From NCBI RefSeq assembly GCF_041146345.1, contig NW_027191408.1, positions 310,001-374,000 on the forward strand: 64,000 nucleotides of DNA, read 5' to 3'. A model generated the notes under the pieces. That model ran no database searches, was not told where the DNA came from, and saw only the letters and a program-made list of their open reading frames with translations. Each line of letters opens with the position of its first letter. Positions within the stretch are counted from its first letter, which is position 1. Positions 2,985-45,714 of this stretch are shown here, one piece after another. Made by a program: the position numbers and the translations under genes. This DNA comes from Neodothiora populina (Eukaryota).

Positions 2985-3856
2985 AGGGCTGGGGAACAGG
3001 ATACATGGTGCTGTTTCCGTTGTCGCTGATTGATCATTACGAGGGACGACCTTTGGGAAGAGAAGCTTGATAATGGAGCCTTCGTTTTCGCACACTAGGC
3101 ACATGTGATTGCCTTGTGGGCCACGTTGTTGTCTCCTGAGCGCATATTATCCAAGTCTTAGAGAAGCCTGCGCTTGTTCATACGGGAAGGACGAGAAAGC
3201 TCCACTTAGGTGCATGCGTCGAAGCCACTGTGATAGCCACATACAGCTCTGCAAGTGCTAAAACCAAAGTACCAAAGGATAGCCTTTCTGTGCGGCCGTA
3301 GCCATATCGCCTTATCAGGTCTCCTAATAGCCAAATCAAGACTCACAGCCTGCCGAACATATCTCACGATAGTCAAAAGTCCAGTCTGCGTGTCGAAGTT
3401 CAGACCTGACCATGACATCATAGATTAGGAGACCGGGAGTGTAACTTCCGTCACACCTCAACACCTCAATCATGCCGCAACTAAGAGATCCTGCACCCCC
3501 GCCAACGCAAAATGCTGTGGACTGGGAATACACGAACTTCCGACCAACCATACATATAAGATCAGTAATGCGCACGGCATTTTATAATCCATTGAGCGCA
3601 GCAGGTCGGTACCGCACATTGGTGTAGTGCCCAGCCGGAGGCAGCACATGTCGGTAGTGAACATACAGAATCAGGGTTCTGTGTAAGGTAAGGTACAGCA
3701 AGTACCTCTAAATTGCGGGGAGGAGGAGGGGCGGGGCCCGACAGCATCTTGCCCACAAGCCATATCAAACCAAAAAGTCGACCTGTCAATTCGAGTTGCC
3801 GCTCATCTTTCCTTATTTCCAGCACTCACTTCGCTGTTGCCGGTGATTTGGACGGC

Positions 3857-3874
3857 GTGTGTGTGTGTGTGTGT
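3857..3874. repeat. (GT)9 microsatellite
   Basis: Direct read. Confidence 0.9.
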
Positions 3875-4163
3875 GCGTGTGCTGTGATTACTCACTTTCC
3901 CTCCAAATCGGAGTACCGGTGTACAACAGTTCCCCGACACCATGCATGTAAACTGGTCATGAGGCAGAACGCAGAAAAATGTGCGCTTAGAACCGGATCA
4001 AATCCGTGACTAGCAAGAGGGAAAAGGGACTAAAAAAAAGCCTCGAGCCTGCTACGAGCTGGCATATATCTACCACGAGGCGCGAGAACGATTCTTTTAC
4101 CTGTTTCTGCGTTTCTGCGTGTTAGGGTACAGGGCGAGCGGGGACCTGTTTCCATCGTCAATA

Positions 4164-41578: not shown

Positions 41579-42113
41579 CCTGTGTAAACTATCTTGTAAT
41601 CAAGTGGTATTGTAGTGATATGTTGTATTGTGACAGACGTGTATCAGATACGGCAGGCACGACAGAGCTTCAAGAGTTGCGGTCTCGAACTACCCACAAA
41701 GCGGACAACACCACCGCCGCATCACATCGCATCTCCAGTAAACAATGTGCACAACCATCTTCCTTGATACAACCAACACACCTCTTCATCGCACCTTCTA
41801 GGTAGGTCCTAATGGTGCTTGATGTTGATTACAGATGGGGAAGGTAGGTCTTGACTTCACTCTTTACACCAAGTCATCTGTTATCACGATTCATCTCTGG
41901 TCACTACTTTGCGTTAGATCACATGGTCTTTTGCCTTAGGTAGACCCGAGTATAAGTATTTCTATTCTAAGCAGCCCAATCAGCTTTGAAGGTCAAGCGA
42001 TTTTGGCTAGGTTCAAATTAAAATAGATGTATTGATTACATACCTTGGAGCCATCGAAGGGAACACACCCGTCAAGGCACCAAGGCAGTTGGACAGTAAA
42101 CTTACCCTTGGAT

Positions 42114-45039
42114 ATGTCCTATACACGTTCGACAGCCAGGAGCTCTGAGAATTTGCGAACTACTTCTCACTCTACTCCTCAGGTCGTCCCATCGGCAGTA
42201 AAGTCTTTTCGGGTACTACCCGATCCGGCATGTCCATCAGCTCCTCCATCGCCTTTCCCTCTTTGGAAGAGCTGTATCGAGGCAGATGACAACCATGACG
42301 CAGACTCGTGGAAGAACTACAAGGCGGACGTTGTTTCGTCGCATTGTGACGCTGAACCGAGGACATGGATAGAATGTCCGTCATCTCGTGCAGCTCTGGC
42401 ACTACCTACACCGCCACCATCTCCGCCTGGTATAGATGTACATGGCATACCACCTATGGAACAGGGTCTTTTTACCGGGATCGTGTCACAGTCTGCTTCA
42501 TCACCAAGGCCAACATGGCTGACAGCGTCTTCCTGTGCTCTCGAGCAAGACAGGGAAAGGACGAAACGATCGCGACCTTCTCAGCTTCCGCGTCTGGTTA
42601 TGACCACGGCAAATATCGATGGTAGTCAGGATGTCAACGCGGATCGAGAGAGTCAATCTCCATACTCTTCCGATAACGACGATGACGAAGTAGGCCCACT
42701 CGACCTTTCAGTGCGAGACATCGTCCCATCACGAGCTGCCCAGACACAGGATCCATTTGTAGGACCAATCGCCCCACTTTACCACCAGGAAGCAACCCCT
42801 GTACTGCCTAGACAACACGAAGCGCAGCACTACATGTCCCCAATGTCTCAACGCTGCCCAAGCACACTGTTACAGTATCCGGGCGCGGGTACTCCCCGAC
42901 GCCACACTGGACTCGCACGTCTTGCTGCAGACCGCTACATACCTGCCCGAGACTTGCGTAAGCAAGCTCGAGAGAATCTTTTGCTTGCTACGCCCCCAGG
43001 CAGGCTATGTGACGCCGAAAAGAAGCACCGGAGACGAGTTGCAATTCTCGATCCGTTCAACGAAGTTCCGAATGCGAATAGAACGCGACATCATGAACCT
43101 CACGTCATGCCTAGTGACAATCTCAATCTCGCTAGTACTCCTCGACCGAGTCGAATATTGATCGATATTCACAGCGAGGGTCTTTCTCGTATAGCCAGCC
43201 ATGGAGCTGTGTGGGGAATCGGTGGCTTCGGTGTGGCAATCGATGGTGTCATGAGCACGAGCGATGGTCATGGTGGCAGGGTTGCGAGCGGCACCAACGC
43301 ACCAATGTACCGATCCGCCTTTCTTGACCGAGGACGCGTGTCTGAGAGCCGAGCTATGCATAAGAGGCGTCTTGCAGCGGCCCTTGATATCGACCAAGCC
43401 AAGAGAGTGCTTGTAGACGCGACAGATGTCCAAGAGCAGGCCTCATCGCCAACTTCGCCATCCGATCCAAGCAGTCCCGAGTCAGGAAGCAGCAGTCCCA
43501 CAGTGTGGAAGGACAATCAATGGAGACCATCTGATCCGACATCCCGTATGAGTCCATCGTATCCCTAATTTGACGATAGTTGCTAAGTACCGCCGATAGC
43601 GCGCAAGAAAGTGGTCAAGGCACGAAGTGCACTACCAATCGTGCCCTTCAGATAAGCTGCCCTTACCCATCAGACATGCAGTGTTGTTGACGGCGTGCAC
43701 AGTTCTAGACGCACCATCCCTGAGGGACGACTACTACTGCTCCCTGCTCGCTTACTCCTCAACAGTATCATGTCTGGCTGTAGGGCTCGGTGCACACGTC
43801 TATCTTTGGTCAGAGAAACAAGGCGTCAAAACCCCAGAAAGCCTGACTTCGCCATTCGCTGGTCACATCACTTCCTTGTCATTCTCATCGGTCGAAGGAG
43901 GGCATGCCGTACTTGCAATCGGGCGAGCTGATGGTCGAATCACTCTATGGTCGCCTTTTGACAAAGACCCTCGCTTTGACTCCGAGCAGCCCTCGCCCGT
44001 TTCTGCTGTGTGCTTTTCGCCCCGGCCTTTCAAACGCACCTCGATTCGAGATTCAAACATGAAGACGTGGACGGAGTATCTCCTGATAGGTGATGAAGTG
44101 GGTCATGTCTATTTCTACTCGATAGAGTGGCCAAACAGCTCTGATAGAGATCTATATAATTGGCATGGCAGTATGACACTTCTTGCCCGTCTTACGGTTC
44201 ACACGCAACAGATCTGCGGGCTTGCCTGGTCACCAGATGGAGAATTCTTTGCGACTAGTGGTAATGACAATTCGCTCTTCTTGTTTGAGACTCGCAAAGT
44301 CCTACATCGGGCGCGAGACAACAATCTACCTGCGGTCCAAGTTCGCAGTGGTGGGTCGACCGGGACTGATCCCCCTCCTGGCCAAGGCAATGTCATATCG
44401 ATAGTTGCAGGTCAGGAATCACATCATTGGCGACTCAACGCAGCGGTGAAGGCAGTGGCATTCTGTCCCTGGCAGCCGTCACTACTCGCCGCCGGAGGAG
44501 GCAGTAACGACCGCTGTATCCACTTCTTCCACGCGCTGTCCGGCGCCAGCCTGGCCATCATCGACTGCGCGGCTCAAGTGACCAGCCTCGTGTGGAGCAG
44601 GACTCGGAGAGAGATAGCCGCCACGTTCGGTTTCGCACAGCCAGATCACGCCTTCAGGGTCGCGGTCTTCAGCTGGCCCGGCTGCGAGACGCTCGTCAAG
44701 ATCCCATGGTGGGGAGAAGAGAGGGCTCTGTGGGCCGTCGCTTATCCCGGCGGACCCAATACTGGATTCGCCGAAGCCGAGTCAGGACGGACGGATGGTA
44801 GGAGCGCAAGCAGACGCGCCAGGGAGGGAACTGCTTGGTCGATGCGCAGGACTCGAGACGAAGGCTGTCTGGTCATCGCCACCAGCGACGCGAGCATCAA
44901 GTTTCATGAGGTGTGGAGTGAAAGTGCTAGGTCTGGACGAGGTGAATTGGGAATCGGTCTCGGAGGCAGTCTCGGGGGAAGTGACATCCTGGAAGCATTG
45001 CACGGAGTAGACAAGGAGGGGAGGGAAGTGATTCGCTGA
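42114..45039 (+). CDS. AMA1: Cdc20/Fizzy-family APC/C activator, meiosis-type Ama1-like; probably 3 exons (42114-43545, 43600-43651, 43701-45039)
   Basis: C-box DRYIP, VLDAPSLRDDYYCSLLAY, HTQQICGLAWSPDG, AAVKAVAFCPW...GGGSNDRCIHF, AQVTSLVWS and a C-terminal IR tail. The second junction is non-canonical (see findings). Confidence 0.85.
43652..43700 (+). other. Candidate AT-AC spliceosomal intron, 49 nt
   Basis: TTC AG|ataagc...ttgac ggcgtgcac|A GTT CTA GAC restores PFRVLDAP in frame. Confidence 0.6.
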
Positions 45040-45714
45040 GACAAGCGAGACGAACATTGGTGATCAGCGCCGAGAGTCTCGCTGCTCGACCACCAGGAAA
45101 TCCTATGAGACCTAAGACCAGTGCAGGCAGACATTAATAGCCAGAAGGACCTCACTCAGTCCATCCTTGTGCGGACCCTGAGGGACTTTTTTGTTCAATG
45201 TTGATGAATTCTTTTGCTTTTATCTATTCATCTGTACATACACATGTGATATCGTCGCCCGGTCGCCACTCGCGCAGGCAGCCTGTGGGAAAATAAAATG
45301 AAAACAAAAGAAACAGCAACGAAGCCGTGCGTTGCCTCATGGATCCCCCAAGAGTCGGGAAAAGTGCTCGTAATTGGCAAATAAAACAATTAAAAACGCC
45401 TGATAGTGTTGACAAACGTATGAGTGACTTTTTTGTGGTGCTGGTGATCCTTTATGAAGTCCCAAAGTCCAAAGACGAGCGGTGGAAGTACTGGCCTATG
45501 CGTGTTCCCGCAGTGTAATGTAGGCACCACCGGTATGCCCAATCGTTTTGGTTGGCTCTCCTATTTTGAGATGCGCTTTGACCTCTTGTCACACCGTCCT
45601 CGGATCGTGCTGATACACGAATCTCTGCAGCTTTTGCTGCGGTAATAGTCTTACAGACATGGACAGGGTTGCGACTCTATGAAATCGCAATCCTGCTTAT
45701 TCAGACGGCACCAT

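Follow-up and report, generated by a model that had tools for sequence, protein, structure and literature searches.

The DNA analysed here is a 64,000-nucleotide (nt) stretch of the Neodothiora populina genome (contig NW_027191408.1, positions 310,001 to 374,000), referred to below as the window. It carries, at about 42114–45039 of its plus strand, a three-exon gene that resembles AMA1, an APC/C (anaphase-promoting complex/cyclosome) activator. The second of its two predicted introns starts with AT and ends with AC, and this AT-AC intron is the subject of the present work. Exon 1 (42114–43545), which was delimited by its open frame, ATG positions and motifs, encodes the N-terminal region and ends in phase 1. 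The open frame 42036–43568 has its first in-frame ATG at 42114, and the start codon of the gene is uncertain. The exon 1 motifs DRYIP (C-box-like, at 42930), GAVW, TNAP and LDIDQ are all kept in the orthologue consensus. Exon 1 is followed by intron 1 (43546–43599), a canonical GT-AG intron of 54 nt (GTATGA...TGCTAAG...TAG), and by a mini-exon of 52 nt (43600–43651), which encodes (P)RKKVVKARSALPIVPF and the first two bases (AG) of an arginine codon. The mini-exon reads PRKKVVKARSALPIVPF before this AG, and its 3′ end is ...CCC TTC AG. In the unspliced frame PFR is followed by an in-frame TAA at 43653–43655. The coordinates of intron 1 and of the 52-nt exon, and the TAA behind it, had been given in the original prediction, which was made from the letters of the window, and are borne out. 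In the closest relative of the window gene, the metagenome locus L001, the mini-exon was determined by hand to be likewise 52 nt long and to need the same phase-1 entry.

The predicted AT-AC intron (43652–43700) is 49 nt long and interrupts the arginine codon in phase 2 (AG/.../A). Its 5′ splice site, ATAAGC (43652–43657), corresponds to a U2-type GTAAGY donor with the first G changed to A. A branch-site-like TTGAC is located at 43687–43691; its putative branch A (43690) precedes the last base of the intron by 10 nt. The terminal AC (43699–43700) is followed 2 nt downstream by a canonical AG (43701–43702), the use of which as acceptor for this intron would lead to a broken frame. Exon 3 (43701–45039) provides the third base of the arginine codon and then encodes VLDAPSLRDDYY..., in the frame from 43702, up to the stop codon at 45037–45039; its product ends in the tail ...EVIR.

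The product of exon 3 matches the CDC20/Fizzy WD40 profile PF24807 over residues 2–343 (E value 6.8e-56) and profile positions 1–269 of 292, with a score of 190.2 bits against a curated cut-off of 200. The best named relatives, with 57–60% identity, carry from their sources the name meiosis-specific APC/C activator AMA1. Among named relatives those with the highest identity, 60–65%, belong to the Dothideomycetes (Hortaea, Salinomyces, Lecanosticta, Meristemomyces and others). APC/C activators of the Cdc20/Fizzy family are defined by a C-box and an IR tail. Both are present in the window protein, as the N-terminal DRYIP (C-box DR[FY]IP) and the C-terminal ...EVIR. The two long exons, 1 and 3, are open, and the C-box, the WD40 domain and the IR tail are all retained.

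Removal of 43652–43700 (ATAAGC...TTGAC and 9 nt more, ending CAC) gives a product reading ...DPTSPRKKVVKARSALPIVPFRVLDAPSLRDDYY..., with no internal stop over the whole gene model. Across the join of the mini-exon and exon 3 the product reads ...PIVPFRVLDAPSLRDDYY..., which contains the motif PFRVLDAP. Three other splices are in frame: a single GT-AG intron of 157 nt (43546–43702), which gives ...DPTSLLDAP; a GTGCAC donor at 43627, which gives ...KARILDAP; and a GA-AG intron (43651–43702), which gives ...PFILDAP. As stated in the original prediction, all three lose PFRV. Of the splices compared, the AT-AC excision alone restores PFRVLDAP together with an open frame. A single A-to-G correction at 43652 was considered and rejected, because the frame stays broken when the AG at 43701–43702 is used; here too the original prediction agrees with the result. 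Since both 43652 and 43701 are A, the cut can be shifted one base to the right and is equally writable as 43653–43701 (TA...CA). AT-AC is the natural way to write this ambiguous cut.

The letters of the window at this site were compared with Logan contigs, which are assembled from SRA runs. The contig of the DNA run X1 shows no letter difference over 42500–45100, at a word depth of 29.5. This agreement rules out an assembly slip. The bases A43652 and C43700, which the original prediction had wanted confirmed, are therefore the same in a reads-based contig, although X1 may be the source of the assembly and is hence not an independent confirmation. The runs X1–X4 gave contigs of DNA type only, with no spliced joins, and X2–X4 do not cover 43196–43978.

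A scan of metagenome contigs yielded 80 orthologous loci, of which 78 reach the intron site; L009 and L075 have no sequence upstream of VLDAP. Each locus was assigned to a class according to what stands between the codons of PF[RK] and that of the valine. L059 was mis-parsed by the pattern and was read by eye as the near-twin of L060; L013 was also read by eye. No intron is present in 29 loci, where PF[RK]VLDAP is read through. Another 29 loci contain an AT...AC intron of 46–53 nt that, like the one of the window, splits the Arg/Lys codon in phase 2, so that the AT-AC ends seen in the window recur at the identical codon position in 29 of 78 orthologous loci. A GT...AG intron occupies the same position in 15 loci, and in one (L013) a GT-AG intron lies 2 nt downstream. 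The remaining loci have AT...AG (L038 and L040) or AT...AA (L039), or are cut off inside the intron, ending ...TAC (L043). The recurrence of AT...AC at one codon position is far beyond chance. The K/R-rich ...PxxP[FY][RK] segment is found directly upstream of VLDAP in all 76 classifiable loci, and in the 48 intron-bearing cases (47 loci and the window) its frame and motif are kept in every one. The orthologues thus carry the PxxPFR segment of the mini-exon, and carry it as coding sequence.

Several of these loci deserve separate mention. The intron of L013, at about 3935–4001, reads CGAG/GTATGT...GCAG/TA and lies in phase 1 of the valine codon. L013 belongs to a Teratosphaeriaceae-like clade whose other members are intron-less here, and its intron could reflect intron sliding or a new gain. 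The A-initial introns of L038 (1182–1229), L040 (255–302) and L039 (3954–4000) are located just upstream of the VLDAP match and have the donor ATAAGT. These three loci are closely related and Leotiomycete-like, and in L049 and L051, their sister loci, the intron at this site is GT-AG. The three may represent intermediate stages of a switch from AT-AC to GT-AG. When read by eye, all three have an AC inside a CTGAC motif 10 nt upstream, which would provide an in-frame alternative that is 12 nt longer. In L001 a TAG and a frame change occur at about 3830–3870, close to the exon 1 terminus; the corresponding reading in the window is ...WKDNQWRPSDPTS. L001 shares 84% identity with the window gene in the WD40 part, and its frame break is either the mark of a decaying gene or a contig error.

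Protein sequences from relatives were examined for joined forms of the two reading frames. In Logan, ENA and JGI the gene calls are simple open reading frames, which match DNA uninterrupted over their full length where the DNA was seen; examples are P0133 (922 residues) on L026 and P0188 (740 residues) on L037. For a lichen fungus (a Lecanoromycete, the P0084 cluster) a frame of 901 residues reads ...VVPSTPFRVLDAPN..., with PFRVLDAPN, on nine Logan contigs, the longest of 3330 nt, and a variant of it is found on one contig of 3229 nt. The same alleles occur as a frame of 444 residues ending in ...PFR and a stop (longest contig 3368 nt) and as a frame of 457 residues starting from the valine (longest contig 6436 nt); 444 and 457 add up to 901. 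This is indirect evidence that, in transcript-sized contigs of this fungus, an interruption with a stop directly behind PFR has been removed exactly between Arg and Val.

For Botrytis cinerea two conflicting kinds of model exist. The B05.10 model P0120 (792 residues), which is also present in Logan, reads ...SLPVAPFKVLDAP, with APFKVLDAP, and two other models, P0200 and P0201 (776 residues), read ...CRTFQISFTFTVVEFFLIFSTVLDAP. When codon consistency was searched for, exactly one reconciliation emerged, in which the mini-exon is translated by P0200 with a two-base frame offset and the interruption is then read through. The interruption implied in this way is 47 nt long, starts with AT (an Ile codon after ...TTC AA) and ends with AC (a Thr codon before Val). 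Among the proteins P0142–P0213, ten continue in the WD40 frame across the 3′ end of the interruption, and in every one of the ten Thr (ACN) immediately precedes V/I-LDAP. P0162, which is among them, has PFR-Y-V..., corresponding to AG/A TAC GT. DNA and a joined frame from one species were not found together for any AT-AC locus: the protein–locus matches of at least 99% that were tested are all intron-less, and a homologue search with L041 gave no joined form above 70% identity.

In a set of 120 orthologous proteins, 51 contain ...P[FY][RK]V-LDAP. The PF[RK]V junction is missing from 48, which have xLDAP instead (x being L in 21, V in 14, I in 9 and F in 4); five have Thr before V, and 16 fall outside the motif pattern. 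The 48 junction-less proteins are mostly published automatic models of Pleosporales, Leotiomycetes and Lecanoromycetes. Their xLDAP pattern looks as expected from gene finders that skip the mini-exon and place the acceptor at AG/TT.

The splice signals were compared among the 38 distinct intron sequences at the site, the window included. Their first and last bases are A...C in 22, G...G in 13, A...G in two and A...A in one; G...C does not occur. The covariation of the first and last base is significant by Fisher's test (p = 1e-7), which ignores shared ancestry. The donors of the 22 distinct AT-AC introns are ATAAGT or ATAAGC (6), ATATGT (7), ATACGT (3), ATAGGT (3) and ATGAGT (3). ATAAGT itself accounts for five of the 22, and the donor of the window is ATAAGC. 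In the orthologous GT-AG introns the donors are of plain GTRAGT type. In 33 of the 38 introns, AT-AC and GT-AG alike, the A of a yTrAy motif stands 10–11 nt from the 3′ end. The U12 5′ splice site, (A/G)TATCCTT, is not represented, as none of the 22 AT-AC introns starts with ATATCC. TCCTTAAC is the branch-site consensus of U12-type introns. A motif of this kind 10–15 nt from the 3′ end is likewise missing from the window intron, which has TTGAC at that distance; a CCCTTACC stretch is located near its 5′ end, about 30 nt from the 3′ end. An Rfam scan of the 64-kb window at gathering thresholds gave no matches, and 64 kb is too small to show an absence of U12 small nuclear RNAs (snRNAs). In a Trichoderma RNA-seq study the branch-to-3′-end distance has a median of 15 nt and a peak at 11–14 nt (PMC4324775). 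U12 introns and U12 snRNAs are reported to be missing in Ascomycota and Pezizomycotina (PMC2846911). The features tested fit a U2-type AT-AC intron and the two U12 sequence hallmarks fail, so that the acting spliceosome would be the major (U2-type) one, as inferred from the motifs and from PMC2846911. The view in the original prediction that the 5′ end is a U2 donor with an altered first base and not ATATCC, and that Pezizomycotina are thought to lack the minor spliceosome, is in accordance with these data.

Editing of A at position +1 from adenosine to inosine (A-to-I), which would turn the donor of the AT-AC group into a GU-like one, was considered and rejected: the 3′ partner covaries to C, not G. 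It is also disfavoured by the preceding base, which is G or A and not the U that is preferred before an edited A.

A FastTree phylogeny of 122 WD40 sequences was used to follow the AT-AC form among the fungi; the tree is unrooted, and local Shimodaira–Hasegawa-like support of 95 or more is regarded here as strong. The window pairs with L001, itself an AT-AC locus (support 99), and the pair lies within a clade (support 100) of intron-less Mycosphaerellales- and Teratosphaeriaceae-like sequences. The AT-AC loci lie in strongly supported clades with named Pleosporales, Lecanoromycetes and Leotiomycetes. Eight are found among named Pleosporales (L005, L006, L007, L012, L015, L016, L019 and L023), of which L015 and L019 share 91.6% identity with a protein of Alternaria panax whose published model skips the mini-exon. 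The Lecanoromycete loci are AT-AC in 16 of 16, with nine distinct introns, all AT-AC. The Leotiomycete-like loci are mixed: AT-AC in L052–L054, no intron in L037 and L050, GT-AG in L049 and L051, and AT-AG or AT-AA in L038–L040. Eurotiomycete-like loci are intron-less at the site, and the GT-AG clade, whose nearest neighbours are Lasiosphaeris, Podospora, Neurospora and Xylaria, is thus Sordariomycete-like. The branch of L061, an AT-AC locus, is very long (1.08), and codon 284 of its WD40 exon is an in-frame TAG, which could represent a further intron, a pseudogene or an editing-type stop.

On this tree the A/G state of the first intron base changes twice, and the presence or absence of the intron changes nine times. 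The simplest reading would be that the AT-AC intron is old, was exchanged for GT-AG twice and was lost on many occasions, the direction of change being inferred from an unrooted tree. The deep sharing of AT-AC across clades, together with only two changes at the first base, therefore points to an inherited state. By the same count, the covariation of the first and last base is real but rests on few independent events. Two ideas of the original prediction are not supported as they stand. To it both intron ends appeared co-changed, and it suggested a third, independent lock at the RNA level; the ends did not change together in the lineage of the window, since the AT-AC state is common to Pleosporales-like, Lecanoromycete and Leotiomycete loci, and this state is old and inherited and no independent invention.

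Taken together, 43652–43700 is very probably a genuine spliceosomal AT-AC intron, removed by the U2-type spliceosome, in an AMA1-like Cdc20/Fizzy-family APC/C activator gene of a Dothideomycete. We propose that the major spliceosome would recognise the donor as an ordinary fungal site with A at position +1. As suggested by yeast genetics (Parker and Siliciano 1993, in PMC5029451), the initial A and the terminal C of the intron would stand in for the usual G–G contact of the second splicing step. The AG of the mini-exon would be joined to the A of exon 3, giving ...PIVPFR-VLDAP..., the conserved entry to the WD40 propeller. The same site is AT-AC in Dothideomycete, Lecanoromycete and Leotiomycete relatives and GT-AG in Sordariomycete-like ones, and losses of the intron have been many. 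Judged by these comparisons, the intron is old, conserved and of U2 type, and the evidence for its removal in vivo is indirect and comes from relatives.

Several observations weigh against this assignment. No RNA run of the window organism was found, and the 43651^43701 junction itself is hence unobserved. The Pfam CDC20/Fizzy score lies slightly below its curated cut-off. The type of the interruption in the P0084 cluster would be AT-AC by analogy with the nine distinct Lecanoromycete introns, the DNA of this cluster being unseen, and the B. cinerea AT-AC intron is likewise deduced from protein models, with its DNA unseen. The introns of L038 and L040 end in AG and that of L039 in AA in spite of their initial A; therefore either the pairing of an initial A with a terminal C is not absolute or these genes splice otherwise. 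Finally, the frame break in L001 means that the gene could be decaying in the lineage of the window.

The AT-AC ends, the short branch-to-3′-end distance of 10 nt and the CCCTTACC stretch near the intron 5′ end would also be compatible with a U12-type intron removed by the minor spliceosome. This is extremely unlikely: the donor is ATAAGC, the motif at 10–11 nt from the 3′ end is yTrAy and not TCCTTAAC, CCCTTACC is too far from that end, plain GTRAGT is the donor type of the orthologous GT-AG introns, and the group is reported to lack the machinery (PMC2846911). That the gene is a pseudogene, or that 43652 or 43700 was miscalled, is brought to mind by the broken exon 1 of the nearest relative L001 and by the possible origin of the assembly from the sole DNA run that covers the site. 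We regard it as highly improbable, since AT...AC occurs in 29 independent contigs that come from many metagenomes, both long exons of the window gene are open with C-box, WD40 domain and IR tail kept, and a G at 43652 would leave the frame broken with the nearby AG. Skipping of the mini-exon through the 157-nt GT-AG intron, to give ...DPTS-L-LDAP..., has canonical ends and an intact frame in its favour, and 48 of the 120 orthologous proteins read xLDAP as if joined at AG/TT. Those proteins are, however, predictions and not transcripts, in the 29 intron-less loci the ...PxxP[FY][RK] segment is simply part of the coding sequence, all 48 intron-bearing cases retain its frame and motif, and the segment is present in the joined frame of the lichen fungus and in the B. 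cinerea B05.10 model. Skipping as the normal route is accordingly very unlikely.

The intron could in addition act as a regulated gate, a possibility that adds to the proposed U2-type AT-AC splicing and does not exclude it. The yeast AMA1 intron requires the Mer1 enhancer for its splicing. Were the AT-AC intron spliced efficiently only in sexual tissue, vegetative transcripts would stop after PFR and Ama1 would be confined to the sexual cycle. Such a gate would be a functional counterpart of the Mer1-dependent yeast intron and of the stop-codon editing of Fusarium AMA1. AMA1 has repeatedly acquired gates at the RNA level. In yeast its intron is spliced only in meiotic cells (PMC10776026). In Fusarium graminearum FgAMA1 (PSC33) is a premature-stop pseudogene restored by A-to-I editing (PMC10776026, PMC9499528), and premature stops arose six times independently in FgAMA1 orthologues (PMC10776026). 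The original prediction had named the yeast and Fusarium cases in agreement with these sources. The 444-residue form of the lichen fungus lies on a contig of 3368 nt, near the spliced size of 3330 nt, and could be a retained-intron transcript. The AG 2 nt past the terminal AC would cause a frameshift if used. An in-frame TAG in place of a Trp codon occurs in three of the 12 Sordariomycete-like loci examined, a clade that is GT-AG and not AT-AC; the pattern is that reported for restorative editing sites of FgAMA1/PSC33 orthologues. The TAG codons are found in L067 and L072 at VEWPERW (codon 149 of the WD40 exon) and in L079 at ACLSWKP (codon 117). Against a gate stand the absence of the intron from 29 of 78 loci, with nine changes of presence or absence, and the GT-AG introns at or next to the site in 16 loci, 15 at the same position and L013 shifted by 2 nt; hence the gene can do without the AT-AC form. 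The splice signals are strong, and inside the intron nothing else looks conserved among the 38 sequences when judged by eye. U2-type AT-AC introns of animals are not known to be regulated, which was counted against a gate. The AT-AC pair may also be frozen by a two-step mutation barrier alone, with either single change harmful. On balance we consider regulated splicing of this intron unlikely. An extension of this idea, by which the intron would have been an ancestral splicing gate of filamentous ascomycetes, poorly spliced outside sexual tissue, and would have become dispensable in Sordariomycetes once A-to-I editing took over, with the AT-AG and AT-AA loci as living intermediates, is a shade more doubtful still. 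The occurrence of GT-AG in the clade with editing is suggestive in this respect, and the editing system has been placed at the base of the Sordariomycetes (PMC10776026).

U2-type AT-AC introns are a known but rare kind. Those of animals and plants (Sheth et al. 2006, PMC1557818) resemble the AMA1 intron in their AT-AC ends, a GTAAGT-like donor with A at +1, the lack of U12 motifs and the presence of orthologous GT-AG introns at the same position. The AMA1 intron differs in being fungal and 46–53 nt long, with donors over the whole fungal range (ATATGT, ATACGT, ATAGGT, ATGAGT), whereas metazoan U2-type AT-AC introns follow a very strong /ATAAGT consensus (PMC5029451). It differs further in a branch-to-3′ distance fixed at 10–11 nt and in its location in one sexual-stage gene, where three or more classes of Pezizomycotina have kept it. 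Saccharomyces cerevisiae, a yeast without the minor spliceosome, can splice an engineered /AT-AC/ intron (Parker and Siliciano 1993, in PMC5029451). The likeness here is that a fungus lacking this machinery splices AT-AC, and that the pairing of an initial A with a terminal C, which the original prediction had correctly taken from yeast, matches the covariation found at this site. The endogenous nested AT-AC intron of RPL30 concerns 1–2% of transcripts, is non-coding and has an atypical donor (PMC5029451), in contrast to the AMA1 intron, which would be the sole route to a conserved protein and has a near-consensus donor. U12-type AT-AC introns share the terminal dinucleotides and the short branch-to-3′ distance, but their defining 5′ and branch motifs are absent here and their machinery is reported absent from the group (PMC2846911). 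The Mer1-dependent AMA1 intron of S. cerevisiae (Cooper et al. 2000, in PMC10776026) is found in the same gene family and must also be removed to obtain the WD40 protein, but meiotic regulation is a feature of the yeast intron and, for that of the window, a hypothesis. The F. graminearum case (PMC10776026, PMC9499528) likewise involves an RNA-level step needed for full-length Ama1; this step is editing and not splicing, in a clade with GT-AG at this intron.

AT-AC accounts for about 0.03% of introns in SnowyOwl gene models of some fungi (PMC4084796), and in fungal annotations it is even rarer than CT-AC (PMC7072748). No description of an AT-AC intron in AMA1 of filamentous fungi was found in a literature search that left subscription journals mostly uncovered, and at least one curated model, that of B. 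cinerea B05.10, implicitly contains the intron. What is new is that such an intron is deeply conserved in a single gene of the sexual cycle, that A...C and G...G covary there naturally, apparent intermediates included, that the spacing from branch to 3′ end is short and fixed, and that the resulting annotation errors are so widespread. AT-AC is disallowed by most gene finders, and the conserved AMA1 site therefore breaks annotation systematically, in 48 of 120 proteins, with B. cinerea left with its two conflicting models. As A...C, G...G and three apparent intermediates all occur at the site, it also provides a natural data set on how the first and last base are paired for the second splicing step, and the constancy of its 10–11 nt between branch and 3′ end is unusual. 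Should the intron indeed be regulatory, three fungal lineages would each control AMA1 through a different RNA-level gate.

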